Origin: an uncultured Gammaproteobacteria bacterium | Lineage (GTDB): Bacteria; Patescibacteriota; Microgenomatia; Levybacterales; UBA12049 | Direction of reading: 5' to 3' | DNA length: 64,000 bases | Assembly: GCA_964507055.1 (NCBI GenBank) | Contig: CAZDOJ010000003.1 | Coordinates: forward strand, 4,819 to 68,818 | In this document: piece after piece, positions 1 through 36,102 of the stretch | Layout: the number at the start of each line of letters is the position of its first letter | Position numbering within the stretch: the stretch's first letter is position 1 | Translations under genes and position numbers: made by a program | The notes under the pieces: model-generated | The model's input: the letters and a program-made list of their open reading frames with translations, nothing else | The model's database searches: none | What the model was told of the DNA's origin: nothing

Positions 1-3000
1 AAAGATCATCGGTGATATTCAATGGAGAGATAGTTCCCGCAATTCGCTGCCAATAATTGGTTCCTAATGTACTTGCATCAACCCATGTTGGTGCACCACC
101 TGCATTCGATTGAAGAACTTGTCCTGCAGTTCCTGCACCAGTCTGTCCAACAACACCGGAACCATTTGTATATAATAGTCCACCGTTGGTTGTATAGTTT
201 CCAAAGGTTAATGCACCTGACGCATTGATGGTACCGATATTGGACAAGTTACCATTGTTATCGATTCGTTGTGTTCCCGCTCCCGCTCCTGTATTGATCC
301 CTATAGTTCCATTTATAGTAGTACCTGTGATTATGTTTGTTGTTGCAATGGTTCCAAATCCTGATCCGATTGAACCTGAAGTTAATGCTCCAACTGTTGT
401 CAATGAAGATGCGGTAACCGTACTACCGAGAGTTGTAGAACTCAAAACTGTTGTGCCACCGATTTGATAGGCACCACCATTGAGATTTAAGTTACCTGTT
501 CGATCAAAGACAAAGCGCGTTGTACCAGATGCTGATCCTGTCAAAATGTCTTGATTACCTGTTTCATTGAAGATGACAAGTGCTTTACCTATGTTTGCTC
601 CATTGATATCCAATTTCCCTGTCGGAGTATCATTACCAATTCCTAATCGGTTGTTTGTCGCATCCCATGCAAATCCTGAAGATTCAGATGTCAAACTTCC
701 TGAGCCATTAAAGTATGCTATTTGCCCGGATGTTCCTGCCCCTGTCAATCCTCCACCAGAACCTGCACAATTACCGGTCGTCAAACAAATTGTGCCATCT
801 GCATCAGGTAATGTATACGTACGATTTGCGGTCGCCACTGATGTAAGTGTATTGAGGTAACTTGTATTACCTGCAAATTGTACATCACCGTTGTTTGCAA
901 GATTGAATTTGGTGACACCTGATGAACTTGCGGTAATGATATTCTGATTTCCTGTTTCATTGAATGAAACCAGAGCCTTTCCAACTCGATATCCACTCAC
1001 TTCAAATTGGAAATCTGTCGCGGTGTTACCACCAAGGACAACCTGATCGGTTGCGGTTAATGGTGCAAGAACCGTACCATTTCGCTGCCATTTTGAGGAA
1101 CTTGCTCCGCCAGAACAATTGGCTGCTTCCAAAATACAAACAGTTCCACCACCGTCAGGGAATGTAAATGTCCGATCTGCGGTGAGGTCTCCAACATCAA
1201 TTGTTCCAAAATATGTATTGCCAGCTGATTCCAAGATTCTCAATTCACTTGCAGCATTATTGAGGACGATATCAAATGCCCCGGTCTGATCCCAATTTGC
1301 TGTGAGTGCTCCGAGTGCAATTGTCGGAGTTGAACCTTCTCCAGTTGCAGTCGCAGAAATACCATTGCCAGATGTTAGGGTCGCAACATAATTTCCAGTT
1401 GTATCTGTACCGAGTGCAACTGCATCAGCACCGATAGTCAATGTACCATTTGCAGCCAATGTCGCATCACTTGAAAGTGTCACAAATGTCGGAACACCCG
1501 AACCATTTGCAACAAGCAGTTGTCCGGATGTTCCGGCAGCTGCTTGGGAAACAACACCTGAACCATTGGTGTACAGTAAACCATTATTTGTTGCCAATCC
1601 GCCAAAGGTGATTGTTCCGCCAGCGTTAAGATTATTGATGTTTACAAGATTGCCATTATTATCGATTCGTTGTGTTCCAGCTCCTGCTCCAGTATTAACT
1701 CCTGTTGTTCCATTCAATGTTGTACCAGTGATTGTATTGCCAGTTGTGATTGTTCCGAAACCATTTGCAATCGATCCACTTGCCAATGCTCCAACCGTGG
1801 TTAACGAAGATGTAATAACACTTGATCCAAGTGTACTTGCTGTCAAAACATTTGATCCGTTGATTTGTAATGCTTTACCTGATGCAAGGTTCAAATCTCC
1901 GGTGACATTAACGACACCATTGCCATTAAGTGGTGCAAGTGTAATATTCCCAGTCGTTGCTCCCCCGATGGTGAAAGATTGATTTGCTGTCGTCTGGATA
2001 GAACCCGGCGTATTGAAGGTCAAAGTACCTGATGTAGATGCATTCCCAGTCGTTCCTGAAATTTGGAATTTCGCTGATGATGTAGCAGTCCCACCGATAA
2101 GGAAATCGTCTGTGATGTTTAATGGAGAGATAGCACCATTTGCTCGCTGCCAGAAATTGACAAGTCCGCCAGCATCCGCCCAAACAGGTACTCCACCTGA
2201 AACAGTCAAAATTTGTCCATTTGTCCCAATCGCTCGTGCAGCTAATGTATTTGATCCAGATGCGTAAATGAGATCTCCAGCATTGAAACTGTTCAACCCA
2301 GTTCCTCCATTGGTTACGCCCAATGTTCCAGTAACATCAGCTGTATTTAATCCAACGGCACTTGAAGAAAGTACACCTGAGCTATTACTTTTAACGATGC
2401 CAGTCGATAGTCCACCAAATGTGATCGTTCCGGATGCAGATAAATTGGAAAGTCCTGTGATACTTTGGCTGTTTCCAGTGATTGCACCAGTTAATGTGGC
2501 TGCACCAAATTGAAGGACTCCAGATGATGCGGTTATGACGTGATTACCTGTGCCTGAGAAGCCAATTCCTGCTCCATTACCTGCTATAGTAATTCCTGTT
2601 GAACCTGTCGATGTAATATCGCCTCCTGAAATAGCATCTGCCCCAACATCAATTGAACCAAAGCCAGTGCCTATTGAACCTGCATTAAGTGTACTAACAC
2701 TTGTCAAAGAAGATGCTGTAACACTTGAACCAAGCGTGGTTGAGCTCAAGACATTTGCCCCTCCGATTTGATAGGCACCACCATTGATGTTAAGATTGCC
2801 TGCACGATCAAAGACAAAGCGAGTTGTACCAGATGCTGATCCAACTAAAATATTTTGATCACCTGTTTCGTTGAGGCTAACCAATGCTTGTCCAGCAGCA
2901 CCCCCAACAACGGAAAAAAGCCCTTCCGGGCTGGTTGTGCCTATACCGATCTTTGTTCCGGTATCGTAAATGAGCGAGTTGCCAATGTTGGTCGTGCTGG

Positions 3001-4900: not shown

Positions 4901-4963
4901 TGGCAGGATTCTTTTTACTAACTTGGACATCCTGCCTGGTGTCCAACTTTTGCTAGTATATAT

Positions 4964-4994
4964 ATTACTACATATATTAATTAGGCATGTCAAG
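4964..4994 (-). promoter_or_regulatory. Conserved promoter/operator-like element upstream of giant gene A. Read on the minus strand it contains TTGACA (4994..4989) followed by an AT-rich -10 region (ATTAATATATGTAGTAAT).
   Basis: 'attactacatatattaat[2nt]aggc[1nt]tgtcaag' is nearly identical at 4964-4994, 13794-13823 and 36007-36037. Each copy lies about 65-95 bp upstream of a giant-gene ATG and is followed by a conserved 'aatcttatc' box. Confidence 0.45.
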
Positions 4995-5603
4995 CACAAA
5001 TTAATCTTATCATAATTACATCAAAAATAACCATTTAGCCTTAAAAAATGAGCTGTCCAACTTTCTGCGAAACTCTAGTTTTGTAAGAAAATAAGTTAAT
5101 TTTCACAGCTTCAAAACTCTTATTAATTTTCACAAAATTTCTTTACCCCTTTTGATGCTTAATGATATTTTTTGTATTACTTAAAGAATTTTTATATTTT
5201 CTCTTCCTTTTGTACATTTCTCTTGAATAAAAATCTCAGCCTTAGAAAAAAATAGAGAGAGAAATAACTCGTAAGTATAGATAAAATTGCAATATATTTA
5301 TGTGTATCAAAAGGTAAACCTATGCATCAATGATAAATTTACTAACGAGACATGACTCTCACATGCGATTCACACATCTACAAGTATTTATAAAAACTAC
5401 CACTGATAAAAACTAACGACACAAGAACAACCACAAAGAGTCACCAGAAGTTGGAGAAGTCGATCTAAAGACTCTCTGGTGGAAGAGAAAGAGTATCCTT
5501 TACGTCAAAGTCGAAGTTAATCTATATAGTAAAAAAATGAGTATGGAAAATAAACCTAATTGAACATATTGGATAAGTTTGAAGAATTGCTATAGCAAGT
5601 TAG

Positions 5604-8600
5604 TTAATTAACAATCCACCAACTCAACCTCACATCAGTGGACTCTGCAGATCGTACCCGAATTTCAAATGTGTCAGCTGCAGTCTTCTTAACCGCAGTA
5701 GTCACTGGAATTTCTTCTGCTTGGACAAAGATCTTTGATTTATCGGACAGAGCAGAAGTCTTAACAATAACTTTTGTTTGCCCTTCCTTTAAGACAACTT
5801 CTCCTAAGGATGCACTTGCAACTTCTTCAGTATCGATATTGACCTTCTTCGCCGTAATCTCCCCTTCAGACTTCATGTTACCTTTATTATCGATTGTTAT
5901 CTTACCGTTGAGGATATCAATTCCGTTAAGACCATTTGATTGCAGTCGTAATGCTCCGACAGATGTGTTGATGGCAGCAGAACCTTCGTTATCAAGTCCT
6001 TCGATGCTAAGAAGCCCAACATTCACCTTTCCTGTGATACCTACGTCTGCAAGCGTTGTACGCCCTACAACAGCCAATGTATCAGTGACTGTGACTTTGT
6101 TAACATCAAGCTTCTCTAGATCAAGTTCTGCTGCAGATGAAGCAGTAAATCCTCCAGGTGCACTTGTCATGAAAGCTGAACTGCTCGCAGAATCCTCGAG
6201 TGTTGAAACTCGCGTAGTTAATGCTGCAAGCATGTCTTGGAGAACATTGGTCTTGCTCTTTACAGTAGTCAAAGCTGATGAGGTCGCCGTTCGTGCATTG
6301 AATGAATCATCAGAGATATTAGTGTTCTGGTTTTGAGCAAGTTGTGGATTAAATGGTTTACCATCAACTGAAATATTTCCATCTGAACTTAACGTGGCAC
6401 GTGGGTCGTACCATGATGGATTAACCAATGCAACAACTTTACCCACTGCACGAGGATCAGGATTATTGTATGATTCAACAGCCTTTGCGATTGTAGTACC
6501 AGCTTGTGTAGCCTTCATAGCAACCCCCGGAATACTACTCGAAGTAAGGTAATCACCAGGTTTGATTGGACCATTTTCGGTACTAACCTTTGTAGGAATT
6601 CTTCCAGCAAGTGCAATTGGATACTTCTTATCATTACCAAATCGTCTCTCTTCATCACCGAATCCTCCCAAAAGGATACCTGGCTTTGTAGAAACGATAC
6701 CGAGGATACTTCCCTGATAAGAATTCTCTGAGCGTTTGACGTATTCTGTATTATTTGGATCAGCAATAACAAGATCTCCTGGCTCCAATGTATTGTCTTT
6801 TGATGGATAATTCTCAGCTAAATCGATTGCGGTAACTGTACTGGATTCTGCATAGATACGTCCTGCTAGTCGTGAAGCATCATCACAATTACTTCCTCCA
6901 TCATCAACACAAAGTGCACCATTACCGACATGAAGAGAACCATCTGGCAGATTTGTAAAATTATTTGTGCCCAAACCAAACGATGCCGCACCAGTAAGGG
7001 TTGCCAATGTTACCGTCGCAGCTCCATTATTTTCAAATACAAATCCCGCATTAGCATCATAGACTTTCAAATAAACATTCTCTGCAGTTCCAGCATTGTA
7101 TTGAGAGAATAAGATACCTCCACCAATATTTGCACCATATATATTTGGATTTTGGATATAATTTAATGAAGATATTCCTCGTACATCGAAATCATAATTA
7201 GGATCCGTAAGTCCAATACCAACTCTTCCGCCTCCTCGTTGTAAAATAAGATCATCGTAAACCCCACCAATAATGGATGCAATATCATTGTAACCTCCGC
7301 CTGTTCTGTTTGTGCCAAATGCCAGATAATTCAGTGAGCCAGGTCCATCAGTGAATAGTACAGAATCTCCACTTGTATTTCCTGCAACATACAAAGGATT
7401 TCCTGGATTGGTTACTCCCCCAATACCTACATTTCCGCTATTCGTAATCACGAATTTGGTAGCCCCACTCTTTGAGGCGGTAAAGAGATCTCCGACGCCA
7501 TTATTATCGACCATGAAAGCGGCTTTTGCAGTACTCGCTGATATCGAAGCTGCCGGAGCGGTTCCGCTAGTACCAAAGATACTCAATGCTCCATTTATTG
7601 TTTGTTCCCCGTTAACTGATAATCCATTCCACATTTGAGCATTTCCTGCGACAGTGAGACTGCCATTACTAAAGATATTTCCGGCAAAAACACTTCCGCC
7701 TACAGCTCCATTGCCAACCATACCTGAAGCTGATGCGATATTGCCTCCAGATAATCCGATGAGGTCAAGATTTGCGTTCATTGAAATTCTTGCTGTACTT
7801 GCATAGTAGACAGTGCTTTGAATACCACTAGTACCACTTGTGGTTGTAGAGCCTCCCACTACATACATATATCCGTTTTCGATAACACCATTCTTCGAGA
7901 TGTTCCCACGAACTCCAGGAATTAAGTATTGATTGGTTGCCCATGTTCCTACAGTTCCATTGTCATTCAATTTTGCAAAGAAAACTTCATCTTGAGCATT
8001 ACTTGTATCATCTCCTCCCATCGCATAGACATAACCATTTGCCACAACTGATGAATGACCTACTCTTGCGGCTGGCATTCCATTGGTTGAAGTCCATGAA
8101 CCGACAGAACCATCACCATTTAGCTTTGCAAAATAAACATTTGTTGTACCGCCACTTGCATTACCTCCGATCATGTAGACATATCCATTAGCGACAACTG
8201 ATGTATGACCTCGAGTTGCTGCTGGAAGGTTGGTACCATTGGTCGTCCATGCTCCAATTGATCCATCTGAATTAATCTTTGCATAGTAAATGCTATTGAT
8301 ATTGTTATTGATAACATTGTTTGATCCTCCAAGCATATACAAGTATCCATTGGCGACAACTGAAGATTGGGATTGAATAGCCTGAGGCAAGTTGGTTGCA
8401 GTCTGCCATGATCCAAGTGTTCCATCAGTATTAAGTCGTGCATAGTACACTTTATTTTGAAGCGTAATAGAAACCTGTCCACCAGCAACATACACATAGC
8501 CGTTATAAACCACTGCAGTTGCATTACTCAAACTTGTTGGAAGCGAAGACGTGGTTCTCCAGTCTCCTACAGAACCATCTGCATTTAATGCCGCATAATA

Positions 8601-13724: not shown

Positions 13725-13793
13725 TGGGCAGTAATGAAATTGAGCTCAAATACTAGACTTTGTCACCTTTTGTCCAATATTTTCACATAATAT

Positions 13794-13823
13794 AATTACT
13801 ACATATATTAATAAGGCTGTCAA
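13794..13823 (-). promoter_or_regulatory. Conserved promoter/operator-like element upstream of giant gene B (same motif as 4964-4994 and 36007-36037)
   Basis: The sequence is 'attactacatatattaataaggctgtcaagg'. The reverse complement gives TTGACA plus an AT-rich -10 region oriented toward the ATG at 13724. Confidence 0.45.
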
Positions 13824-14123
13824 GGATGAGAATAATCTTATCGTATACTTATCATACTTTATCGATTGTGCTCGACAATTTCGTGAAAAGTTTCGGGGAA
13901 TTATTGATGAGAGAATCCAGTAAATTCTAATAATCTTATACGTGCGATTTTGGAGAATTTCATTAGTTGCAAAAACGTGTTTTTAGAAATTGAGTCAGTT
14001 TAAAAAAAGTCTTATAATAATCATTATCCGTCAGGGACAGAGATATATCCTTCCCTTTTTACGAAAAAATTAAAGATATCAATAGTTATATTAATGCATC
14101 AAAGTGGTGGTCTATTCTTTGTT

Positions 14124-14657
14124 CTATTGAGGAATTAATTTGTTAAGAGCATCTTGTTCTGCGGCTGCTGATGCAATCTCGATATCTGGTTCTGTAGAAG
14201 CTGATGTTGTCCCCGCAACTGCTGAGGATTCAAATGGAATTGATGTAGGCTCTAGATAATTGAGTTTGGACTTACTGATAATTTTTTTTAATGATGGTCT
14301 ATATAAATAGACTTCTTTACTCTTTTTGTAAAGGAGAATCTTATCTCCGTTCTCTGCCTTTTTAAAGAAAGGTTGTGTATCGAGTGATTGCTTATCTGAA
14401 ACTGTTGCCACAGTTGGGACTTCATCTTTTGGAAGTGCCAATTGTTTCTTTGCATTGCCCATCATCTCATTCCAATCTTCTTCGTATGTCTTTGCCTCTC
14501 TCTGAAACACTGCTTCAGGGCTATGAAAGTACTGCCAATAACGGAAACCACCATAACTGCCCACGAGAACTCCTGCAACAATTCCAACAGCAATGAGTGT
14601 CGATGCAACTGGATGATTCTTATGAAATGTTTTAATTTTTTGCATGGCACTTAGCAT
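14124..14657 (-). CDS. Hypothetical membrane-anchored protein (N-terminal TM helix, Lys-rich extracytoplasmic part)
   Basis: ORF of 177 aa with one hydrophobic helix ('VASTLIAVGIVAGVLVGSYGG') near the N-terminus. It sits 103 bp downstream of the M23 gene, on the same strand, inside the giant-gene cluster. Confidence 0.5.
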   Translation of the reverse strand: MLSAMQKIKTFHKNHPVASTLIAVGIVAGVLVGSYGGFRYWQYFHSPEAVFQREAKTYEEDWNEMMGNAKKQLALPKDEVPTVATVSDKQSLDTQPFFKKAENGDKILLYKKSKEVYLYRPSLKKIISKSKLNYLEPTSIPFESSAVAGTTSASTEPDIEIASAAAEQDALNKLIPQ

Positions 14658-14760
14658 AAAATAAAGCGAGTAAAATGTAAAGAAATCTCAATACTCATCT
14701 TTGCATAAAACCCTTTGCCATTTCGCATTTGATGACCTTTGGCGACATGTGTAAAAATGC

Positions 14761-19002: not shown

Positions 19003-19069
19003 CCCTCCTTATATTCATAGTAAATCAATTCCTGTACAGTTGCAAATTAGACGCTATACTCCCCTGGTA

Positions 19070-28000: not shown

Positions 28001-31000
28001 TGTTCCAGAGAATGTTAAATCAGCATCATTTCCTGAAGCTGTAAATCCAGTTGCTCCAGAAGCAGTAATATCAGTACCTTGGATCGTACTACTTGTAAAG
28101 ATACTGCCAAAACCATTTGCGATTGATCCTGAAGCCAAAGCACCTACACTTGTCAAAGATGAATTGACGACACCAGCACCAAGTGTTGAGCCGGTGAGAA
28201 CACTTGTTCCATTGATCTGGAATTCTTTACCGGATGCCAAGTTAAGATGGCCTGTGGAAGTAACTGTACCAGCACCAGCCAATGGAGCAAGCAGGATATT
28301 TCCTGTGGTGTTGCCTCCGATTGTAAGTGTTTGATTATTCGTTGTCTGCAATGTACCTGCAGCTGTTAGATATGTTGCTCCGGTTGCACCAGCTGATACA
28401 GATGCTGTTGGTGTTCCCGAATTGACATTTAAGACTGCAAACTTTGCAGAATTACTTGCTGATCCTCCAATAAGGAAATCAACTGTCGAATTCATTGGAG
28501 AAAGTGCACCATTTGCTTGGTTCCAGTAATTGATAGAACCTGCAGCACATGATCCCCAAACCGGTGCTCCTCCGCCATTGGATTGGAGACATTGACCAGC
28601 TGTGCCTTGAGCTGTTTGTGCCACGACTCCTGATCCGTTGGTGTAAAGCAAACCTCCATCGGTTGTAAATCCTCCAAAGGTGACAGTTCCTGAAGCTGAA
28701 AGATTGCCCAAACCTGTGATATTTTGTCCGTTGCCGGTAATAGCTCCAGTAAGTGTTGCGGCACCAAGTTGGAGTGTGCCTGCTGAAGCTGAGATCAAGT
28801 GGTTACCAGTTCCTGAGAACAAGAGGTCCGCGTCATTGCCTGTAACAGCCAAACCGGTTGTTCCTGTAGAAGTAATATCTCCACCAGAAATAGCATCAGC
28901 TCCTGTATCGATTGCACCGAAACCTGAAGTAATTGAACCTGCATTCAATGCCCCAACTGTTGTCAAAGATGAATTTGTAACACCTGATCCGAGAGTGTTA
29001 CTACTTAAGACAGTTGTTCCACCAATTTGATAATTACCACCAGTAATATTCAAGTCGCCTGAGTTACTCAAGGTCAATCGAGTTGTACCTGATGCTGAAG
29101 CCGTGAAGATATCACCTGTCCCTTGCTTGTTGACGATCAATGCGGAATTACCTCCAGCGTTTGGTGAAACAACGACACCACCAGTTCCAGCATTTGTTCC
29201 AAGAGTTAAATTAAAGTTGGAAGTTGCGATACTTGTCGCTGCATCCAATGTCATGTTGTCGATGAACTCAGAGAAGTCCAAAATATCATCAGCGATTGAG
29301 ACATTTGCTTCATTGGATGGAGATGCTGTCACTGTGAAATCTGTACTGAAATCAACTGTATCTACGTTTGAACCGACTCCAATATCATTATTCTGGACAT
29401 TAATAGTACCTGCAGATCCAGATCCACCAGCATCGGTCGCACAAACCCAAGCCTTTGTTGAATCATTCCACTTAAGAATTTCATCATTTGCACAACCTCG
29501 AAGCAATGATAATCCATCAGTTGTATTGAACTCCAAACCAGAATTGGAACTTGTATTGGCTGTATCTCCAGATGAAGATAACGCAATTGTTGCAACTCCG
29601 GTATTACTAATGGTTACTCCACCTGAAATTGTCGTGAATGTTGGAACTCCAGAACCATTGCCCAAAAGCACTTGACCACCAGTTGGTGCGGAAGTTACAG
29701 ACAAAGCACTTGCACCATTGCCGTAGACAACACCATTGGTAGTAAAGCTTGTCTGTCCTGTACCACCGTTGCCAACTGGTAATGTACTCGTCACATCACC
29801 AGAACTCAAGTCAACTGCACTCGATGAAAGCACTCCAGATCCATTGCTCTTGACGATTCCTGTAGAAAGTCCACCAAATGTGATCGTTCCGGCAGCTGAT
29901 AAGTTGTTCAAACCAGTGATACTCTGGCTATTTCCAGTGATTGCACCAGTTAATGTGGCTGCACCGATTTGGAGTGTTCCAGATGATGCACTTACGATAT
30001 GATTACCCGAGCCTGAGAAGGTTAATCCTGCTCCAGTACCAGTCGCTGTAAATCCTGTAGTTCCAGATGCTGTAATATCTGATCCTTGAATCGTGCTTCC
30101 AGTTAAAATACTACCGAAGCCACTTGCGATTGAACCGGACGTCAATGCACCAACACTTGTCAAAGATGAATTGATAACACTTGAACCAAGCGTTGAAGCA
30201 CTCAAGATACTGACGCCATTGATCTGGAATTCATTTCCAGTTGTGAGATTCAAGTTGTCGTTCACTGTAAGTGTATTCTGTGATAGATCCGAAAGTTGGC
30301 CTTCGATTGCAAGATTTCCGTTTCGGCTAAGAACAAATTGTGTTGTTCCCGACGCTGAAGCCGTGATGATGTCTTGATTTCCGGTTTCATCGAAGACAGC
30401 CAATGCTTTTCCTGCTGCTGCACCAGAAACTGTCAATTTACCTGTTGGTGTATCTGTACCAATTCCGAGTTTTTTGGTGAGAGCATCCCATGAGAATCCT
30501 GAAGTTTCAGATGATAATGATCCTGTCCCATCGAAGAATGCAATTTGTCCCGCAGTACCTGATCCAACCAAGCCTCCACCTGATCCTGCACAATTACCAG
30601 AATCAAGACAAATCTCGCCGCTTTCATCAGGCAATGTATATGTTCGAGGTGCTGTAAGGTTTGCGATGGTTAACTGACCACGTCCATCTGTATCATAAAA
30701 GTACAAAGACGTTCCTTGTGTACCACCAGCAGTGAACGCTGCACCTGAGATGACATCACCAATCGCAGTGATGTCTCCTGCACCACCAACTGATGTCACA
30801 TTCTTCCAACTTAATCCGCCAGTACTATTAGTAGTCAAAACATAATCGCTCGAACCATCAGAACCTGGCCATGTGTATGTAACACCATTGAATTGTGTTG
30901 TTCCAATATTTACCAAATTACCATTTGTATCTACTCTTTGTGTTCCACTACCTGCTCCCGTGTTAAGACCTGTCGTTCCATTTATAGTAGTACCAGTAAT

Positions 31001-34000
31001 AGTACTCGTTGTAGCGATTGTTCCAAAACCATTTGCGATCGATCCTCCGGTCAATGCACCAACATTTGTCAAAGATGAATTAACAACGCCTGTTCCAAGG
31101 GTTGTCGCGGTGAGAACATTTATTCCGTTAATCTGGTAGTTATTCCCTGACGCAAGATTCATAGTACCGTTAACTAATACTGTCCCTGCACCATTTAATG
31201 GTGAGAAGATTATATTGCCAGTACTATTGCCACCAACTGTTAAGGTTTGATTATTTGTGGTTTGGATGTTGCCAGCTGCATTGAATGTGAGTGAACCTGA
31301 GGTTGAAGCATTGCCTGTATTACCAAAGATTTGGAACTTGGCTGAAGCTGTACTCGTACCACCAATTGCAAGATCATCGGCAATATTAAGAGGAGCAAGA
31401 AGTCCTGCGTTTCTCTGCCAATAGTTGGTACCGAGACTTGAAGGACTTGCCCAAGTTGGAGCACCGGAACCATTGGAAATAAGTACTTCTCCATTACTAC
31501 CAACACCTGTGAATGCAAATGTCGAACCGTTGGAGTAAGCGACCCCACCAGCAGAACCGACTGAAGTGATACCTGTTCCTCCATTGCCAGTTGCCAATGT
31601 TCCAGTAATATCACCTGAAGCCAAATTAACTGCACTTGATGAAAGGACGCCTGAGCCATTGCTCTTGACGATTCCAGTGGAAAGCCCACCAAAGGTAATT
31701 GTTCCTGATGCAGAGAGATTATTAACTCCGACAATACTTTGACTGTTTCCGGTTAAGTCACCAGTTAAAGTAGCTGCTCCTATCTGAAGTGTCCCAGATG
31801 ATGCACTTATGCTATGATTTCCTGAGCCTGAGAAGGTCAGTCCAGCTCCGTTTCCTGTTGCCGTAAATCCTGTTGTACCGGATGCAGTAATATCACTTCC
31901 CTGAATTGTATTTGACGTAAAGATACTTCCGAAGCCATTTGCGATCGATCCTGAAGTCAAAGCTCCAACACTGGTCAAAGATGAATTGATAACTCCTGAG
32001 CCAAGCGTTGATGCACTTAAGACACTTGTACCATTGATTTGGAACATGTTGCCTGAAATCAAATTCAAACTATCATTTACTGTTAATGCATTCTGGGTAA
32101 GATCTGAAAGCATGCCTTCGATTGCTAAGTCACCATTGCGTGCTAAGCGTAGTTGTGTGATACCGGATGCTGAAGCTGAGAAGATATCTTGATTACCAAG
32201 TTCATCAAAAATTGCTAATGCCTTGCCTGCTGCTGCACCAGAAACGCTCAGCTTACCTGTTGGAGTGTCTGTGCCTATGCCAAGTTTCTTGTTAATTGCA
32301 TCCCAGGCAAAGCCAGAAGTCTCGGATGAAATTGTGCCTGTATCTGTGAAGAATGCTAATTGACCAGCCGTACCCGTACCAACAATTCCACCACCAGCTC
32401 CAGCACAGTTACCAGAATCAAGACAAATTTCACCTGATGCATCTGGCAATGTGTATGTTCGAGGTGAAGTGAGGTTTGCTATAGTAAGTTGTCCTCGCCC
32501 ATCTGTATCATAAAAGTACAAAGAGGTTCCTTGTGTGCCACCAGCAGTAAATGCCGCACCAGAGATCACGTCTCCAATGGCAGTAATATCTCCAACTCCA
32601 GGAAGCGTTGCTGGATCATTCCAAGTCAAATCTCCACTGCCATCAGTTGTGAGGACGTAGTTATTCGAACCTGCAGAACCCGGCCAGCTATAAGTAATGC
32701 CATTGAACTGGGTTGTTCCGATGTTGGTTAGATTTCCGGTAGTGTCAATTCGTTGTGTGCCAGCCCCAGCACCCGTATTTACACCGATTGTACCGTTAAG
32801 GGTTGTACCAGTAATCGTATTGTTGTTATTAATCGTGCCAAAACCCATTGTGATGGAGCCAGCACTCAATGCTCCAACTGAAGTCAAAGATGAATTTGTA
32901 ACGCCTGATCCTAGTGTTGTTTCGGTCAAAACATTTGAACCATTAATCTGGTAAGCCTTACCTGAAACAAGGTTGAGATTACCAGTCGAAGTTACCGTCC
33001 CATTCCCATTTTGAGGAGAAAGTGTAATATTTCCAGTTGTTCCACCACCAATCGTTAATCCTTGATTATTGGTACTTTGGATTACGCCTGCGGTATTGAA
33101 CGTAAATGTACCTGAAGTACTCGCATTACCTGAGATACCAAAGACTTGGAACTTCGCTGAGTTTGTGGCAACTCCACCAACGAGTAAATCATCTGAGATG
33201 TTTAATGGAGCAAGCGTACCTGCACCTCGTTGCCAATAGTTAAGTGTGCCCGAAGATATCCATGTAGGTGTTCCTGCACCAGAGACCGCAAGCACTTGTC
33301 CTTCCGTCCCTATTGGAAGTGCAGCTAATGTATTACCAGCTGAAGCATAAACCAAATCACCTGTATTGAATGAGTTTAAGCCAGTACCGCCATTCGTCAC
33401 AGGAAGAACACCTGTTACATATGAAGTTCCTCCCGCAAGATTGAGTGCAGAACTTGAGAGGAGACCTGAGCCATTACTTTGAACTACACCAGTTCCAAGA
33501 GCACCAAATGTGACTGTGCCAGAAGCAGAAAGATTATTGAAACCTGTCGCGTTCTGACCATTTCCAGTCAAAGCCCCAGTCAAAGTAACTGCTCCCAATC
33601 GAAGGACACCCGATGACGCAGTCACATCATGATTACCTGTGCCTGAGAAGTTCAATCCGGCACCGTTACCTGTTGAAATAAAGCCAACTGAACCAGTGGA
33701 AGTAATATCCCCACCACTAATTGCATCGGCTCCAACATCAATATTCCCAAATCCAGAAGTGATAGAACCTGAATTAAGAGCACCAACTGAAGTAAGAGAT
33801 GAACTCACAACGCCAGAACCCAAACTAGTACTTGTGAGGACAGGCGTTCCACCAATCTGATAGGAACCACCGATGATGTTGAGATCTCCACTGCTATTGA
33901 GGGTAAGTCTTGTCGTCCCCGACGCGGATGCAGTCAAAATATTCTGACCAGATCCAGTGTAATTAAAGACAGCAAGAGCCTTACCTGCAGGACCCCCAGA

Positions 34001-35941
34001 AACAGTTAAAAGCCCTTCCGGGCTTGTGGTGCCTATACCAACTCTTCCATTGTCGTATATGCTCGAGTCAGATATCCCACTCGAACTCGTAAACTTGGCT
34101 ATGTAATTGGTGGTACCGGAACCGGAAATGCCTCCTCCTCCACCTCCACTACAATTTCCCGAAGTCAAACAAACAGTTCCACTTGCATCAGGGAAGGTAT
34201 ACGTTCGACCGGTTGTTAGTGGATCCATACTGATTGTTCCAGTCAAGCCAGATCCAAATACAATCTGATTCGCACTATTGGTCAAGTTCAAAGTTGCAAA
34301 AGTTGGTGAAGCTGCAGTATGAATATCCTGTGGTGTAGAGAATGTAATCGAACCAGCACCGTTGCTTATAGTAATTTGATTGACCGTACCTGTCAGGTTG
34401 CCCAATGTATAGTCAGTTCCATTTCCTATAAGAAGTTGGCCATTTGTAGGTATTGAGGCTAACCCTGTTCCTCCGTTTGCTACAGGGAGAACGCCAGTTA
34501 CTTCAAGAGCTCCGCCTGATAAGTTCAACGCACTTGTTGAGAGCAAACCATTACTGTCAGCCTTTACGATACCTGTACTCAAACCGGAAACAGTCAAACT
34601 ACCTGAGAATCTTCCATTACCTGTGACATCCAAAGTAGCACCAGGTGCTGTGTTTCCTATGCCTACATTACCGAGGTTGTAATATATATCGGATCCTGTA
34701 GTTGTCCACTGACTTGTGGCTGACCCATTCGCTGAAATAGTCAAAGTTTTGTCTGTAGTATTTGTGCTGAGCGTAATTCCGCTTCCAGCAGCGAAATTAA
34801 ATGTGTCTGTATTCGAACCAGCGGAGACTGGAGTGCCATCGATATTGAACGTGCTAAATATCTTTTGTCCTGAACCAGGATCGCTGTTGGTTATAGTAAG
34901 ATTATTAAGCGTAATTCCAGCTCCCTGAGTAAAGTTAAGAGCTCCTGTCTGACCCTGAAGCGAAAGTACACCAGTGTTGGTGATAGTTAATCCATCAAGT
35001 CCTATTCCTGATCCCTGAGCTAAAGCTACTTCGCCTGTTTGACCTTGGAATGATCTGACTAACCCACTACCCAAGTTAGCTGAGATTGTAGGATTCTGGG
35101 GATCACCCGTGACTGAAATGTTTGTACCAGCAAGAACAGAATAGACCACGTTTGATGCTGTCAATCGACCTGTGCCCGCATCAATATCAGAATTATTTGT
35201 AACGATGCCTCCACTTGTTGTGGCAATCCCATCAACAGTCAAGCCTTTGCGTATACCAACGCTATCAAGAAAAGTCGCCTGCTTCCCAAAGACAGAAGGG
35301 ATATTCACCCTGAGCACAAAGACCGGAGTATTATCATTTGCTGCTAATACCTCCCGAGCACTTGCACCTTCACGCAGTAATCCTTTCCCAAATCTATCTA
35401 AACTTTCTCCCCAGGTAGGAGCCAAATTCGCAACGAGGACAAATCCTACAAACAGAACTAAGACAGCAAACACGCCAGCCATGGGCGAAACATCTTTCAT
35501 ATCCCGAAGTCTTGATGGCATCTTATATCCACCAAATACATCTTGTCTCGGCTGACTAACTAGATCAGAAACTTGGACATTAGCTTCGGTTTGAGTTTGA
35601 GGCACGACTACGGGGTTAGTTGGAGTTTGTGGGGCTGTAAGCTTTTCGATTGAAGCCTCGGCCTCATGTGTTGGAGTAACAATTGGTTCCTCACTTTGAA
35701 CTGGCTCTGAAGCGACTACAACCGGTGCTGCAGGAGTTGTAGTTGAGCTTGCTGGGGCTGATTGAACAGGCTTGAATCCGTTTTGCTTGAAAGCAAGAAG
35801 TTGCTCCTTCGAATACCTTCGCTGGTTACCAGCGGTTCGATAAGGCAGAAGAACCTTTCGTTCCTCCCAGCGGCGAAGCGTTGTAGGAGAAACTCCTAAA
35901 AGCGTCGCTGCTTCTTGTATTGTGAGCAGTGATTCGTTCAT
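19070..35941 (-). CDS. Giant repetitive surface protein, paralog C (about 5623 aa; the track ORF extends to 35968, but the paralog-consistent ATG is at 35941). Excisionase-type HTH, linker, TM, then an ectodomain built from several long, internally duplicated repeat families.
   Basis: Complete 16.9-kb ORF. 'MNESLLTIQEAATLLGVSPTTLRRWEERKVLLPYRTAGNQRRYS' aligns with the A and B N-termini. TM 'MAGVFAVLVLFVGFVLVANLA'. The repeats include a roughly 693-aa unit duplicated in tandem, 3+ copies of a 'GC.ND.ILKWND..K.W.C..DAGG...' module, and 8+ copies of '..NYWN.ANG.LSP.NST.D.LIGG.ASNSAKFAVLNVNSGTPTASVSA'. Confidence 0.9.
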   Translation of the reverse strand: MNESLLTIQEAATLLGVSPTTLRRWEERKVLLPYRTAGNQRRYSKEQLLAFKQNGFKPVQSAPASSTTTPAAPVVVASEPVQSEEPIVTPTHEAEASIEKLTAPQTPTNPVVVPQTQTEANVQVSDLVSQPRQDVFGGYKMPSRLRDMKDVSPMAGVFAVLVLFVGFVLVANLAPTWGESLDRFGKGLLREGASAREVLAANDNTPVFVLRVNIPSVFGKQATFLDSVGIRKGLTVDGIATTSGGIVTNNSDIDAGTGRLTASNVVYSVLAGTNISVTGDPQNPTISANLGSGLVRSFQGQTGEVALAQGSGIGLDGLTITNTGVLSLQGQTGALNFTQGAGITLNNLTITNSDPGSGQKIFSTFNIDGTPVSAGSNTDTFNFAAGSGITLSTNTTDKTLTISANGSATSQWTTTGSDIYYNLGNVGIGNTAPGATLDVTGNGRFSGSLTVSGLSTGIVKADSNGLLSTSALNLSGGALEVTGVLPVANGGTGLASIPTNGQLLIGNGTDYTLGNLTGTVNQITISNGAGSITFSTPQDIHTAASPTFATLNLTNSANQIVFGSGLTGTISMDPLTTGRTYTFPDASGTVCLTSGNCSGGGGGGISGSGTTNYIAKFTSSSGISDSSIYDNGRVGIGTTSPEGLLTVSGGPAGKALAVFNYTGSGQNILTASASGTTRLTLNSSGDLNIIGGSYQIGGTPVLTSTSLGSGVVSSSLTSVGALNSGSITSGFGNIDVGADAISGGDITSTGSVGFISTGNGAGLNFSGTGNHDVTASSGVLRLGAVTLTGALTGNGQNATGFNNLSASGTVTFGALGTGVVQSNGSGLLSSSALNLAGGTSYVTGVLPVTNGGTGLNSFNTGDLVYASAGNTLAALPIGTEGQVLAVSGAGTPTWISSGTLNYWQRGAGTLAPLNISDDLLVGGVATNSAKFQVFGISGNASTSGTFTFNTAGVIQSTNNQGLTIGGGTTGNITLSPQNGNGTVTSTGNLNLVSGKAYQINGSNVLTETTLGSGVTNSSLTSVGALSAGSITMGFGTINNNNTITGTTLNGTIGVNTGAGAGTQRIDTTGNLTNIGTTQFNGITYSWPGSAGSNNYVLTTDGSGDLTWNDPATLPGVGDITAIGDVISGAAFTAGGTQGTSLYFYDTDGRGQLTIANLTSPRTYTLPDASGEICLDSGNCAGAGGGIVGTGTAGQLAFFTDTGTISSETSGFAWDAINKKLGIGTDTPTGKLSVSGAAAGKALAIFDELGNQDIFSASASGITQLRLARNGDLAIEGMLSDLTQNALTVNDSLNLISGNMFQINGTSVLSASTLGSGVINSSLTSVGALTSGSIANGFGSIFTSNTIQGSDITASGTTGFTATGNGAGLTFSGSGNHSISASSGTLQIGAATLTGDLTGNSQSIVGVNNLSASGTITFGGLSTGIVKSNGSGVLSSSAVNLASGDITGTLATGNGGTGITSVGSAGGVAYSNGSTFAFTGVGSNGEVLISNGSGAPTWASPSSLGTNYWQRNAGLLAPLNIADDLAIGGTSTASAKFQIFGNTGNASTSGSLTFNAAGNIQTTNNQTLTVGGNSTGNIIFSPLNGAGTVLVNGTMNLASGNNYQINGINVLTATTLGTGVVNSSLTNVGALTGGSIANGFGTIATTSTITGTTINGTTGLNTGAGSGTQRVDTNGNLVNIGTTQFNGVTYTWPGSDGSSDYVLTTNSTGGLSWKNVTSVGGAGDITAIGDVISGAAFTAGGTQGTSLYFYDTDGRGQLTIANLTAPRTYTLPDESGEICLDSGNCAGSGGGLVGSGTAGQIAFFDGTGSLSSETSGFSWDALTKKLGIGTDTPTGKLTVSGAAAGKALAVFDETGNQDIITASASGTTQFVLSRNGNLAIEGQLSDLSQNTLTVNDNLNLTTGNEFQINGVSILSASTLGSSVINSSLTSVGALTSGSIASGFGSILTGSTIQGSDITASGTTGFTATGTGAGLTFSGSGNHIVSASSGTLQIGAATLTGAITGNSQSITGLNNLSAAGTITFGGLSTGIVKSNGSGVLSSSAVDLSSGDVTSTLPVGNGGTGQTSFTTNGVVYGNGASALSVTSAPTGGQVLLGNGSGVPTFTTISGGVTISNTGVATIALSSSGDTANTSSNSGLEFNTTDGLSLLRGCANDEILKWNDSTKAWVCATDAGGSGSAGTINVQNNDIGVGSNVDTVDFSTDFTVTASPSNEANVSIADDILDFSEFIDNMTLDAATSIATSNFNLTLGTNAGTGGVVVSPNAGGNSALIVNKQGTGDIFTASASGTTRLTLSNSGDLNITGGNYQIGGTTVLSSNTLGSGVTNSSLTTVGALNAGSITSGFGAIDTGADAISGGDITSTGTTGLAVTGNDADLLFSGTGNHLISASAGTLQLGAATLTGAITGNGQNITGLGNLSASGTVTFGGFTTDGGLLYTNGSGVVAQTAQGTAGQCLQSNGGGAPVWGSCAAGSINYWNQANGALSPMNSTVDFLIGGSASNSAKFAVLNVNSGTPTASVSAGATGATYLTAAGTLQTTNNQTLTIGGNTTGNILLAPLAGAGTVTSTGHLNLASGKEFQINGTSVLTGSTLGAGVVNSSLTSVGALASGSIANGFGSIFTSSTIQGTDITASGATGFTASGNDADLTFSGTGNHTITASGGTLQLGATTLIGAITGNSQNITGLNNLSAAGTITFSGLSTGIVKSNGSGVLSSSAIDLASGDVTGTLAVGNGGTGVTSVGSAGSVAYSNGSSYAFTGVGSNGQVLISNGSGAPSWTDAASVGTNYWQRIAGALSPLSITDDLLIGGTSTASAKFQVFSGTGNATTSGNLTFNGLGVIQTTNNNTLTLGGNTTGNIVLNPLNGSGNVRINGLANCDSIDTDASGNLICGSDAGGGGGAGIVNIQNNDSPVGSSVDTIDFSSDFLVTASPSTEANVSIADDIINFTEIADSLTLDAATSIALSNFDLTLGTNSGIGGIVVAPNAGGNSALIINKQGTGDIFTASAAGTTRFTLASNGNMTATGTLTGLTGLSSSGSITFANFTNNGGLLYTDGSGVVAQTTAGGSGQCLISNGGGAPTWGSCAGGLANYWNQANGVLTPVNSTVDFLIGGQASNSAKFAVLNVNSGTPIASVSAGSTGGISLAANGTIGTTDRQSLTIGNSTTGNVVLNGFGAGIVKTNASGVLSSSAIGLATADVTGTLPVANGGTGQTSFTTNGVVYGNGGSALSVTSAPTGGQVLLGNGSGVPTFTSISGGITLSNTGVATIALTSSGDTVNTSSNSGLEFSTANGLSILRGCNDGQILKWNDTTKVWACGSDAGGTGGPAGVVNVENNDSGVGTDVDTIDFGTDFLVTASPANEANVSIADDVINFTELADSLSLDAATQIALGGFNLTLGTNAGTGGVVVAPNAGGNSALIVNKQGTGDIFTASSSGTTRLTLSSNGDLNIVGGAYMIGGTSVLSSNTLGSGIINSSLTSVGALNAGSITSGFGAIDTGADNISGGNITATGTTGFTGSGNGAGLTFSGTGNHDISASGGVLRLGATTLTGAITGNGQNLTGLANLAASGSITFGGLTTDGGLLYTNGSGVVAQTAAGTGGQCLMSNGGGAPTWGNCTGGLANYWNQANGVITPMNSTVDFLVGGQASNSAKFAVLNVNTGTPTASVSAGSAGAAYLTAAGTLQTTANQTLTIGGNTTGNITLSPLAGAGIVNLTGSLNLASGKEFQINGASVLNATTLGSSVVTSSLTTVGALNAGSITSGFGSIDTGTDAISGGNITSTGTTGFTASGNGAGLAFSGTGNHDISASSGVLRLGATTLTGAITGNSQNITGVANLGTTGTVTFGSFTTDGGLLYTNGSGVVAQTAQGTSGQCLQSNAGGAPTWGSCTGSLANYWNQNNGALSAMNSTVDLLVGGQSSASAKFAILNVNSGTPTASVSAGSAGGASLTADGVLGTTARQSLTLGNSTTGNIVLNGFTAGVVKTNASGVLSSSAIGLATADVTGTLPVGNGGTGATTLTQGGVLYGNGTSPVAASAQGTAGQALLSGGTGAPTWTTGTLALAGNFSTSGANALTLTTTGATNVTLPTTGTLATLAGTETLSGKTLTAPRFVNGGFIADANGNEQLIFGTTASAINELTLTNAAAGGTVTLAATGGDSNIPFAIDAKGTGELRLNGTGTGNVLLGGGFGGTGCTVTNSTGAFACNGAVTGSNISGTTSGTNTGDQTITLTGDVTGSGTGSFATVIADNSVDGTDIALGSDATGDLMYYNGTDWVRLAAGTSTQLLHSGTTPSWGAVSLTADITGVLGSANGGTGANLSAANQGAVPYFSATGVMSALAPGTAGYVLTTNGAGQNPTWSNAAALGTNYWNLANGSLSPVNNTLDLLIGGQASNSAKFAVLNVNSGTPTASVSAGSAGAAYLTAAGALQTTVNQTLSLGGNTTGNIVLNSDGNNFVGIGTATPTNRLTVAGNIEALNGTQQSLLTDTGSIELARTSDDAFIDFKTSTAEDFDARIEGFGGGLAIRTGGSGTQQFVFENGGNLGIGTLDPTTNLHVVGGARITGLANCNTIDTDANGVLSCGTDESGGVQNFWNLNQGTLAPVNSTVDLLIGGTSSSSAKFAILNVNSGTPTASVSAGSAGGASLTATGVLGTTARQSLTLGNNTTGNIVLNGFTAGVVKTNASGVLSSSAIGLATADVTGTLPVGNGGTGATTLTQGGILYGNGTSPVAASAQGTSGQALLSGGTGAPTWTTGALALAGDFTTSGANALTLTTTGTTNVTLPTTGTLATLAGTETLSGKTLTAPRFVNGGFIADANGNEQLIFGTTASAINELTLTNAAAAGAVTLAATGGDSNIPFAIDAKGTGELRLNGTGTGNVLLGGGFGGTGCTVTNSNGNFACNGTLAGSNFSGSTSGTNTGDQTITLTGDVTGTGTGSFGTTIADNSVDGTDIALGSDATGDLMYYNGTDWTRLAAGTGNQLLHSGTTPSWGAVDLTTQITGTLPIANGGTNSTATPTNGGVAYGTGTAFAFTSAGTNGDCFKSNGAAAPTWGSCGGANYWNLANGAFSPVNSTADILIGGTASSSAKFAVLNMNSGTPTASVSATATGNGLSLGGDAVIQSLRNNTLTIGGNTTGNITLSPQAGSGTVTSTGNLNLSSGKEFQINGASILSASTLGSSVVTSSLTTVGVLNSGSINTGFGAIDVGSDNIAGGNITAAGTTGYASTGNGAGLTFSGTGNHDITASVGVLRLGALTLTGTITGNTQSITGLGQLTVDNLRLDNNTLDTTTGDLTLAPNGGDVIFNDATTLNIGGNASDVAYNIIGDTITGANGNMGSDDDLFIEGDLQTLGTIFGNVTGNLTGNVTGNTFTSSSGDITLNAAGSDIIIADNDTLNVGGYGGGSAFNVIGDSVVNNNTADGDNDLYIQDELEVDGIVTIGSTTNGIQFDPAAGPTYYGTARPVRKVTLSAEYPGAILTASNSGTTNGFMTSDASSSASQNLSNFMSYYEWNSSQTAIQDYTVAVRVTLPDDFAAWETSNALQIYYNTELTTNTGNKLDVRVYNSDISLSAAQASTPVAMRVNQTSASQRQWNVISIDDSELDAGNTRDLDAAGETAIIYLKLYSKDNNYTQVGDIVLNYRSNK
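20350..24500. repeat. Intragenic tandem duplication inside giant gene C, period 2079 bp (693 aa), two copies about 85-90 % identical. Boundaries are approximate.
   Basis: The antisense shadow ORFs 21159-21791 and 23217-23870 are about 88 % identical and offset by exactly 2079 bp. The sense-strand protein shows 'NYWQRGAGTLAPLNISDDL...' to 'NYWQRNAGLLAPLNIADDL...' as repeated units. Confidence 0.7.
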
Positions 35942-35968
35942 TGGGCAGCACCGGTAAGTTTTAAGCAC

Positions 35969-35983
35969 AAATGGATAAGTTTG
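35969..35983. repeat. 15-bp direct repeat 'AAATGGATAAGTTTG', copy 1 (copy 2 at 36088-36102). The two copies flank the conserved promoter element of giant gene C.
   Basis: Exact 15/15 match read directly in the sequence at 35969-35983 and 36088-36102. Confidence 0.6.
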
Positions 35984-36006
35984 CTTAACTTTTCACCAGT
36001 ATATTA

Positions 36007-36037
36007 ATTACTACATATATTAATATAGCTTGTCAAG
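36007..36037 (-). promoter_or_regulatory. Conserved promoter/operator-like element upstream of giant gene C (third copy of the motif)
   Basis: The sequence is 'aattactacatatattaatatagcttgtcaagg', followed by 'tattatcttatcttaatcttatc'. It has the same orientation and a similar distance to the ATG as at the other two giant genes. Confidence 0.45.
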
Positions 36038-36087
36038 GCTGAGTATTATCTTATCTTAATCTTATCATAATTCATCCTCTAGAAGCT

Positions 36088-36102
36088 AAATGGATAAGTT
36101 TG
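36088..36102. repeat. 15-bp direct repeat 'AAATGGATAAGTTTG', copy 2
   Basis: Exact match to 35969-35983. Confidence 0.6.

Follow-up and report, generated by a model that had tools for sequence, protein, structure and literature searches.

Introduction

Transmembrane transcription regulators (TTRs), which combine a recognised DNA-binding domain and a transmembrane helix (TM) in one polypeptide, are widespread as a class, according to a survey (PMC10269533, Demey et al.). In TTRs of the ToxR/CadC/TcpP type, a cytoplasmic DNA-binding-type domain, a linker, a single TM and an extracytoplasmic part follow one another in one chain. We analysed a 64,000-nt stretch of contig CAZDOJ010000003.1 (assembly GCA_964507055.1; hereafter the window) that contains three minus-strand genes, A, B and C, whose predicted products have the same order of parts and whose leaders share a conserved element that behaves like a candidate operator. 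ToxR-like regulators carry a winged helix-turn-helix (HTH) of the OmpR/PhoB type and a periplasmic sensor of ~100-250 aa, whereas a MerR/BldC-type winged HTH is joined here to a giant repetitive fibre. Trans_reg_C (OmpR/PhoB-type) had no match in A, B or C; because their winged HTH is of another type, they are not ToxR-like in the narrow sense, but as predicted they would fall within the broad TTR definition. The accessible text of the survey names neither MerR-type TTRs nor examples from the Candidate Phyla Radiation (CPR).

The closest described DNA-binding domain is that of BldC, a developmental regulator of Streptomyces, which has no MerR dimerisation helix and forms head-to-tail multimers on direct repeats of the form AATTNNNN(C) (PMC5859096, Schumacher et al.). 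Its wing residues H46, R47 and R48 contact the AT-rich minor groove, R30 contacts a pyrimidine-G step, and BldC belongs with Xis and RacA to the architectural binders, which distort their DNA (PMC5859096). A, B and C resemble BldC in their MerR-like winged HTH without a coiled-coil helix, in having it as top match by both sequence and structure, in retaining its contact residues and, across the family, in leaders with phased direct repeats of compatible form. They differ in that BldC is a free cytoplasmic protein of 68 aa, whereas the domain forms here the N-terminus of a membrane protein of 1,600-5,700 aa. RacA, the chromosome anchor of Bacillus subtilis, also uses a MerR-like winged HTH to fasten DNA to the envelope and is the second-best structural match, but it is a soluble coiled-coil dimer that reaches the membrane via DivIVA, binds GC-rich palindromic sites and has neither TM nor ectodomain.

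On the extracellular side, phage tail fibres and tailspikes with an S74 chaperone share modules such as Y.INGT.VL.ATTLGSGVVNSSLTSVG and LP..NGGTG with these proteins; unlike A, B and C, which are far longer, have an N-terminal TM for their own membrane and lack S74 in B and C, they are attached to virions. The order of parts is also that of RodZ, in which a cytoplasmic HTH is followed by a single TM and a small periplasmic domain, but the XRE-type HTH of RodZ binds MreB and not DNA. No sequence relationship between RodZ and the fibre proteins was seen in any of our searches. Giant proteins of Omnitrophota (bioRxiv 10.1101/2023.11.21.568195) are likewise multi-thousand-residue, repeat-rich, largely extracellular and implicated in cell attachment; they differ in their signal peptides, their C39/S8 peptidase N-termini or their many TMs, and the paper makes no mention of an HTH.

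Results and discussion

The N-terminal domain resembles BldC

Residues ~5-55 of A, B and C matched three Pfam families above their gathering cut-offs: HTH_17 (PF12728; 42.4, 32.3 and 41.1 bits for A, B and C, cut-off 27), MerR (PF00376; 40-43 bits, cut-off 28.2) and MerR_1 (PF13411; 29-38 bits, cut-off 21.6, with a match that spans only profile positions 2-47 of 69). The profile for excisionase family DNA-binding domains, TIGR01764, scored 29.5 (A) and 31.6 bits (B) against a cut-off of 28.8. By profile score the domain is thus a member of HTH_17/MerR, as a preliminary description of this DNA had proposed from its motif.

We modelled residues 1-260 of C with AlphaFold (AF2) from a 14-sequence alignment. 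The model contains a beta-helix-turn-helix-wing-helix unit with a predicted local distance difference test (pLDDT) score of 92-96 through residue 55, the last helix of which stops at residue 54, followed by a disordered stretch (residues ~60-150, pLDDT ~50) and a long helix (153-186). A Foldseek search against the PDB placed the BldC-DNA complexes 6AMA/6AMK on top (TM-score 0.71-0.81 on the target, 36-42% identity), followed by RacA-DNA, SoxR, CarH and mycobacteriophage Xis, and BldC was also the top match of the HTH domain in a PDB sequence search. The first 60 aa are therefore predicted to fold as an HTH of the DNA-binding type, a point on which the preliminary description had made its case depend.

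The BldC contact residues T27, R30, W31, R47 and R48 correspond to T21, R24, W25, R41 and R42 in the fibre proteins and are invariant in 14 family members, and wing position 40, the equivalent of BldC H46, is Q or H and in the family alignment nearly invariant as Q. Paralog C alone has Thr in place of the base-contacting K26 of BldC; that C is also the paralog with variant sites only in its leader may be a coincidence, with n=1. Because both the MerR coiled-coil dimerisation helix and the C-terminal effector-binding part are missing, the HTH-fibre proteins are not classical MerR regulators.

When soluble paralogs were sought with the 51-aa consensus HTH, a single candidate passed the word filter, an 81-aa call at a contig end that is probably a truncated giant. 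Separately, the N-terminal HTH of a 206-aa IS607-like serine recombinase (P0033/P0034) is 63% identical to that of C and has the same 'VSPTTLRRWE' recognition helix, which hints at a possible origin of the HTH module of the fibre family.

A single membrane anchor with the N-terminus predicted inside

The linkers from the end of the HTH to the start of the TM measure ~70-120 aa in A, B and C, shorter than the 100-170 aa first given; across the family they range from 25 to 180 aa (median 71 aa) and are disordered and unconserved in sequence. A, B and C have one hydrophobic helix each. Over 177 family members, the 15 residues before the TM contain on average 2.97 Lys and Arg residues versus 1.79 in the 15 residues after it, with more on the N-terminal side in 120 members and fewer in 26. 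All cysteines of A, B and C lie in the ectodomain, always as close pairs. Because the charge bias and the confinement of the Cys pairs to the ectodomain both fit an N-in/C-out orientation, A, B and C are predicted to be type II single-pass membrane proteins, in line with the topology proposed before. HTH-less homologs begin straight at the TM anchor.

The ectodomain shares modules with tail-fibre proteins

The ectodomains comprise 1,400-5,400 aa and are modular, with a composition dominated by G (15-17%), T (13-15%), S (10-11%) and N (8.5-9%). They are mosaics with module periods of ~270, ~300 and ~605 aa, and pairs of units in C share up to 85-90% aa identity, the mark of recent internal duplications. 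Pfam, NCBIfam, PHROGs and PDB-sequence profile searches of the ectodomain found nothing beyond a Kelch propeller in B, but a 606-aa unit of C matched P0043 (E 3e-47) and P0056 (2e-22), both of which end in Peptidase_S74, and also a protein with an Mtd N-terminal domain (Mtd_N). In addition, HTH-less members of the same family carry Peptidase_S74. Because the repeat modules are common to S74 and Mtd_N proteins and S74 occurs within the family, we read the ectodomain as tail-fibre-like, as the preliminary description had done, and it probably forms a trimeric fibre. Even at a threshold of E<=1, B and the C-terminal 799 aa of C gave no match to S74 itself (PF13884), and the C-terminus of A lies outside the window. 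The paired cysteines that had been reported are found in all three proteins, whereas the motif LP[VI].NGGTG, likewise ascribed to all three, is unevenly distributed: the pattern LPxxNGGTG occurs eight times in C and twice in B and was not matched in A.

The three genes are diverged paralogs

Pairwise identities between A, B and C are 27-48%, and no two DNA repeat copies within positions 1-36300 exceed 79% identity over 300 nt; their spacings are in frame. The same order, B-like then A-like, is found in OZ246394.1 (locus L007), a complete 1.61-Mb chromosome of a metagenome-assembled genome (MAG), in which the gene ends share ~78-80% nt identity with the window and the repeat core is unalignable. 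The divergence of the paralogs, the arrangement in L007 and the unalignable cores together argue that the genes are real, diverged and fast-evolving. A collapsed repeat or other assembly artefact, the error that the preliminary description had warned of, is ruled out by these identities and by the L007 arrangement, and the rapid evolution that it had suggested is borne out by the closely similar units of C and the cores that cannot be aligned between orthologs. A prophage remnant was ruled out as well, the window genes scanned including no integrase or phage gene.

A candidate operator precedes the fibre genes

The promoters of A, B and C share an 18-nt block, ATTAATATATGTAGTAAT, without a single mismatch, and the window contains no further copy. 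The block begins 5-6 nt past the TTGACA -35 hexamer and covers the spacer and an extended -10. The conserved upstream element mentioned in the preliminary description is thus present, and it is much richer than a common promoter. We compared 81 non-redundant leaders or loci; the layout common to the upstream regions of 79 related loci consists of TTGACA (79/81), an extended -10, copies of AAA[C/G]TT[G/A]GACA and then the start codon. At least one exact TTRGACA core is present in 75 of the 81 leaders, where ~0.05 would be expected by chance. In 76 loci the density of this core rose to 13 per kb between -100 and -50, and between -50 and 0 it was ~9-10 per kb on both strands, compared with the chance level of 0.10-0.15 per kb in the far flanks, which amounts to a 50-100x enrichment in the leaders. 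The most frequent spacing of direct copies is 10 nt (18 of 38 spacings), and the copy closest to the start codon is inverted. Over ~1 Mb of loci, clusters of at least two sites are almost confined to the HTH-fibre genes and their conserved divergent neighbour.

The presence and the form of the sites vary with the HTH. None of six true HTH-less homologs has a site within 300 nt of its start, as opposed to 75 of the 81 loci (Fisher p=1.8e-6). Leaders of members with a Q-wing (G-x-Q-R-R-Y) contain 10-bp-phased repeats in 21 of 57 cases and have C/G 5' of the core in 90% of sites, compared with 0 of 23 and 47% for members with an H-wing (G-x-H-R-R-Y; p=4e-4 and 1e-9, respectively). The leader of a homolog with two HTHs contains three perfect 10-nt-phased AAACTTACCCA repeats, and that of another homolog four direct sites. 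When AA[C/G]T-TGGA-C-A is set against the BldC site scheme, an AT-rich part, 4 bp and a C whose partner G follows T on the opposite strand can be matched, a likeness that is a resemblance only. P0186, initially taken as an example of an HTH-less member, was rejected as such because an HTH lies in frame just upstream of its miscalled start.

Because direct and inverted copies show no pairing covariation, we take the element to be a DNA site and not an RNA stem. A leader RNA element was rejected because Rfam gave no match in the window, the choices of G/A in the direct and C/T in the inverted copy are independent (counts 20, 9, 8 and 2; nine A-C), and the adjacent variable base is pairable in 10 of 37 cases versus 13.4 expected. 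The conserved leader element behaves like an operator for the HTH of the fibre protein, a candidate assignment that draws on all of these comparisons. Because it does so, the ToxR/CadC-like logic of a membrane-tethered DNA binder, which had been suggested from the window, is the best-supported reading.

Further elements are found in the same leaders. Two copies of GATAAGATTA, in the form (T)GATAAGATTA and usually 11 nt apart, precede the -35 in 30 of the 81 loci, a position that would be activator-like. CTG[C/T]CC occurs 0-3 nt 5' of ATG in 63 of the 81 leaders and is not coding because its spacing to ATG varies; it resembles a degenerate inverted half-site (TGTCCAA versus TGCCCAA), and a small number of leaders contain its complement, GGCAG, in the loop that separates the sites. 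Three copies of the 10-mer AACTTATCCA lie on the minus strand of the window (5570-5579, just past the stop codon of B, and 35972-35981 and 36091-36100, around the promoter of C) and resemble the AAACTTACCCA variant sites in leaders L022, L038, L071 and L090. A missing Shine-Dalgarno sequence was discarded as a trait of the giant genes, such a motif being found in only 3 of 18 other genes of the window.

Arrays of 10-bp-phased AA(G/C)TT(G/A)GACA are also present in the unrelated contigs L154 (~1120-1250), L102, L107, L159, L160, L188 and L201, one with ~14 copies and another, in a gut-metagenome element, with 5-6 copies just upstream of a promoter. These arrays have no HTH-fibre gene nearby; another system uses a similar iteron-like array.

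The family is widespread in Microgenomates

We scanned 185,579 species, each represented by one genome, with a degenerate pattern and identified 141 stretches that encode a relative, of which we kept 80 loci; their labels are mostly Levybacteria, Microgenomates, Shapiro-, Woese- and Amesbacteria, and the rest are generic placeholder titles. The family is found in >100 species-level MAGs, mostly of Levybacteria and other Microgenomates and often in several copies, and the nearest homologs of A, B and C belong to MAGs with the labels Levybacteria/Levyibacteriota or other Microgenomates, which points to a Levybacteria-like CPR bacterium as the probable source of the window. The architecture is kept in this survey of related genomes, which the preliminary description had proposed: essentially every kept locus with enough sequence encodes an HTH, one TM at residues ~75-230 and a long open reading frame (ORF), although in most cases the contig ends before the ORF does. 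An exhaustive profile search of 1.84 billion representatives returned 401 proteins at E<=1e-30 and, with the threshold relaxed to E<=1e-10, 2,995; members with the same N-terminus reach 4,679-5,762 aa. An HTH is present in 76 of 133 newly retrieved representatives, several of which have two, three or eight tandem HTHs before the TM. Because some members start directly at the TM, the HTH is an add-on to the fibre family and is not required for making the fibre.

In locus L089, positions 1201-3072 encode a 623-aa protein (P0125) with eight tandem MerR-like HTHs of two alternating types, a single TM and a short outside part; a long palindrome takes the place of the TTGGACA sites upstream of it.

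The preliminary description had regarded the system as undescribed. Our literature searches found no published description of the HTH-fibre family, but hundreds of its members carry automatically assigned database names, for example 'MerR family DNA-binding transcriptional regulator, partial', and TTRs are known to be widespread as a class (PMC10269533).

Proposed function and alternative explanations

The best explanation, to which we assign a probability of roughly 0.55, is that A, B and C are TTRs with a giant-fibre ectodomain whose BldC-like domain acts on the leader of its own gene, resulting in autoregulation or tethering. The ectodomain would be exported via Sec and form a long, probably trimeric fibre, for which we estimate, by analogy with phage long tail fibres, a length of very roughly 100-300 nm. 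The fibre may attach the cell to a host or substrate, aided by the co-encoded M23 peptidase/LamG protein D (Table 1). The HTHs would stay in the cytoplasm on flexible tethers of 25-180 aa and occupy the phased repeats of their own leader head-to-tail in the manner of BldC. With sites placed downstream of the promoter, negative autoregulation of a very costly protein would be the likely outcome, and the simplest one. As a side effect, the gene would be tethered at the membrane site of co-translational export.

Several observations weigh against this proposal. The link between HTH and repeats is correlative, and several of the statistics ignore phylogeny: common ancestry may have inflated all of these associations, since neither loci nor sites are independent samples, and the HTH-less and H-wing members may simply be other clades, which would confound the link. 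In the window itself, the canonical pair of sites is found in the leader of A only; that of B contains a single good site, and that of C nothing but variants. In a metagenome scan for two phased sites by motif only, an HTH gene followed the sites in 2 among the 122 matches listed. The matches lay mostly in unrelated DNA, as chance predicts for a collection of that size, in which we estimate several hundred chance matches; the specificity of the motif is thus shown for the ~1 Mb of family flanks. The second repeat type, GATAAGATTA, has no assigned binder, and the product of the gene divergent from C (36263-37222) could be an alternative binder of the upstream repeats or a second regulator. The NCBIfam profile of BldC (NF033787) scored only 35.5 and 42.5 bits against a cut-off of 77, so that by this criterion the domain does not belong to the BldC family, and ...NAQ..., a putative signal-peptidase cleavage context, stands right behind the TM in A and B. 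The AF2 monomer model of C residues 1136-1500 (19 aligned units) has a mean pLDDT of 55, and Foldseek found no match at E<=0.001 in BFVD for this low-confidence model. Because the fold was not modelled well, the trimeric geometry and the length of the fibre are extrapolated from homology.

Among the alternatives, an architectural tether of the RacA or transertion type, in which the HTH, with no regulatory purpose, fastens DNA (the fibre gene's own locus or the nucleoid) to the membrane where the fibre is rooted, much as RacA anchors the chromosome to the pole or as transertion would couple the gene to the long synthesis and export of its giant product, appears unlikely. The rank of RacA-DNA among the structural matches speaks for such a tether, as do the DNA-distorting binding of BldC, Xis and RacA (PMC5859096), the tandem HTHs of some homologs, which look like DNA-organising arrays, and the fact that the HTH is translated first and has its sites in cis on the same gene. 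However, sites located exactly between the promoter and the gene's own start codon would, when occupied, affect transcription anyway, and HTH-less paralogs make comparable giants, which shows that the HTH is not needed for biogenesis.

A bolder proposal, which we regard as quite unlikely, is a contact- or load-sensing device of episymbiotic CPR bacteria, in which a filament of hundreds of nm, derived from phage tail fibres, would be wired directly to BldC-like heads by one TM and a flexible tether. Engagement, tension or shedding of the filament would change the occupancy of the phased operators, as a prokaryotic analogue of Notch-type juxtacrine signalling, or the device would act as a cis 'one gene, one fibre' counter that tethers the gene to the export site. 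We are slightly more doubtful still about contact- or load-gated signalling in which engagement or loss of the fibre alters the HTH, for example through clustering or through regulated intramembrane proteolysis (RIP/Notch-like) that sets the HTH free, such that host contact reprogrammes genes beyond its own. The architecture matches that of transmembrane one-component regulators, the long disordered linkers could be protease substrates, and the locus encodes with D a further host-interaction protein; against this, no site-2 or rhomboid protease and no other partner is conserved beside the genes in the contexts seen, and site clusters are found only at the fibre genes and their neighbour. The coupling of host contact to transcription, which the preliminary description had put forward, is pure inference.

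We consider it improbable that the HTH no longer binds DNA and is a RodZ-like module for protein interaction or topology, which fixes the N-in orientation or docks a cytoplasmic partner, while the repeats are owned by another regulator. RodZ itself is a precedent for the HTH-TM-extracytoplasmic layout, the conserved winged-HTH protein encoded divergently from C would provide a regulator, and the GATAAGATTA repeats add a second type of site. On the other hand, all BldC contact positions are invariant while other cytoplasmic parts are unconserved, the sites track the presence of the HTH, and the flank of the site tracks the wing residue. An artefact or mobile remnant, that is, a tail-fibre gene misfused to an excisionase gene or a collapsed repeat, is suggested by the phage-type relatives of both halves (excisionase/IS607-type HTHs, including that of P0034, and tail-fibre repeats) but is effectively refuted by the divergence of the paralogs and their DNA repeats, by ORFs that are continuous and have one architecture across dozens of independent MAGs, by the 141 stretches of the species-level set that encode a relative, and by a place in the chromosome beside an ATP-synthase operon and tRNA synthetases, where neither integrase nor phage genes were found.

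What would be new in a TTR that acts on its own leader is the union of an architectural DNA binder of the BldC type with a membrane anchor and with a giant filament that resembles a tail fibre, together with a candidate operator, whereas the parts and the logic are known. CPR bacteria (Patescibacteria) account for a large share of the diversity of bacteria; their means of attaching to partners and of sensing them are poorly understood. Because the family is widespread, multi-copy and fills nearly half of the 64-kb window, it is likely central to the biology of these organisms, and because the candidate operator is well defined, the hypothesis can be tested in vitro without culturing the organism. 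If confirmed, TTRs would be extended to a new DNA-binding fold and to a wholly different extracellular scale, and CPR genetics would gain a promoter/operator/regulator handle. Behind the automatic name 'MerR family transcriptional regulator, partial', a family of giant surface proteins is concealed.

Layout of the window and neighbouring genes

The first 36 kb of the window contain five minus-strand genes (A, B, E, D and C; Table 1). The sizes and the common strand that the preliminary description gave for A, B and C are exact. Its 'tandem trio' holds as three same-strand paralogs but not strictly as a tandem, D and E lying between B and C, and the share of the window taken up by the three was set too high at more than half, the measured value being 46.7%.

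Table 1. Features of the window, with the parts of each paralog and its leader.
Feature	Coordinates	Strand	Remarks
Paralog A	2..4900	-	ATG at 4900; 1633 aa visible, C-terminus past the window start; fibre-like ectodomain beyond the TM
HTH of A	4736-4888	-	
TM of A	4295-4375	-	residues 176-202
Leader of A	4901..5014	-	promoter and candidate operator sites; sites listed from upstream to downstream
GATAAGAT, leader of A	5004-5011	-	
-35 TTGACA, leader of A	4988-4993	-	
18-nt block, leader of A	4964-4981	-	
AAAGTTGGACA core, leader of A	4940-4946	-	
Inverted TGTCCAA, leader of A	4923-4929	-	
AAAGTTGGACA...TGTCCAAGTT, leader of A	4915-4960	-	stretch with both sites
CTGCC, leader of A	4902-4906	-	just 5' of ATG
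Paralog B	5604..13724	-	2706 aa
HTH of B	13569-13712	-	
TM of B	13269-13352	-	residues 125-152
Kelch beta-propeller of B	7845-8750	-	residues 1659-1960
C-terminal domain of B	6375-6827	-	residues ~2300-2450; homologous to the N-domain of the 37333-38103 product
Leader of B	13725..13842	-	
GATAAGAT, leader of B	13835-13842	-	
-35, leader of B	13818-13823	-	
18-nt block, leader of B	13795-13812	-	
TTGGACA, leader of B	13771-13777	-	
GGTGACA, leader of B	13761-13767	-	degenerate 10-bp-phased copy
CTGCC, leader of B	13727-13731	-	
Gene E	14124..14657	-	177-aa single-TM protein without family match; downstream of D
Gene D	14761..19002	-	secreted, ~1400 aa; Peptidase_M23, DUF2341 and Laminin_G_3
Paralog C	19070..35941	-	5623 aa from ATG; mechanical ORF start is GTG 35968
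HTH of C	35780-35929	-	
TM of C	35408-35494	-	residues 150-178
Leader of C	35942..36100	-	
AACTTATCCA, leader of C	36091-36100	-	
GATAAGAT x2, leader of C	36048-36066	-	
-35, leader of C	36031-36036	-	
18-nt block, leader of C	36007-36024	-	
AAAGTTAAGCA / AAACTTATCCA, leader of C	35972-35981	-	variant sites; no TTGGACA
CTGCC, leader of C	35944-35948	-	
Divergent neighbour of C	36263..37222	+	319 aa; C-terminal winged HTH (weak DeoR/ArsR matches)
First gene of the ATP-synthase cluster	37333..38103	+	256 aa; signal peptide, beta domain

Gene D starts 67 nt past the stop codon of C and is probably co-transcribed with it; membership of E in the fibre system is uncertain. Giants with DUF2341/LamG directly follow fibre genes on unrelated contigs as well (L082, 14484-15942; L083, 9054-10530), and D, their equivalent in the window, adds an M23 peptidoglycan peptidase to DUF2341 and Laminin_G_3. 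This looks like a conserved pairing of the fibre with a lectin/hydrolase protein.

On the other side of C, a neighbour like the 36263-37222 gene recurs in L032, L039 and L052, and the similarly placed neighbour in L088 has a weak Fic match. The beta domain of the 37333-38103 product shares 32% identity with the C-terminal domain of B (E 3e-18); the product also has a C-terminal two-helix hairpin with a weak likeness to ATP-synthase subunit c. In many genomes a homolog of this gene lies divergently beside an HTH-fibre gene, with TTRGACA clusters in the common intergenic region.

The rest of the window is ordinary chromosome, with an ATP-synthase cluster, NDK, an M16 peptidase, two dockerin proteins, arginyl-tRNA synthetase, a response regulator and a histidine kinase, ComEC, ComEA and leucyl-tRNA synthetase. 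No integrase, recombinase or phage gene was found among the window genes scanned, so that the context expected of an excisionase (recombination directionality factor) is missing, and scans of the window for tRNAs and Rfam families gave no match. The last ~2.2 kb (61788-64000) have no long ORF, a G+C content of 30% versus ~40% elsewhere and no Rfam or tRNA match; they contain copies of a TTAGCCTC/GAGGCTAA motif that also recurs upstream of promoters of the family. Two secreted proteins encoded on the minus strand at 46085-48319 and 48431-49609 carry a terminal type I dockerin, one of them together with CBM_4_9 modules, and a dockerin-bearing lipase adjoins the family member in L088.

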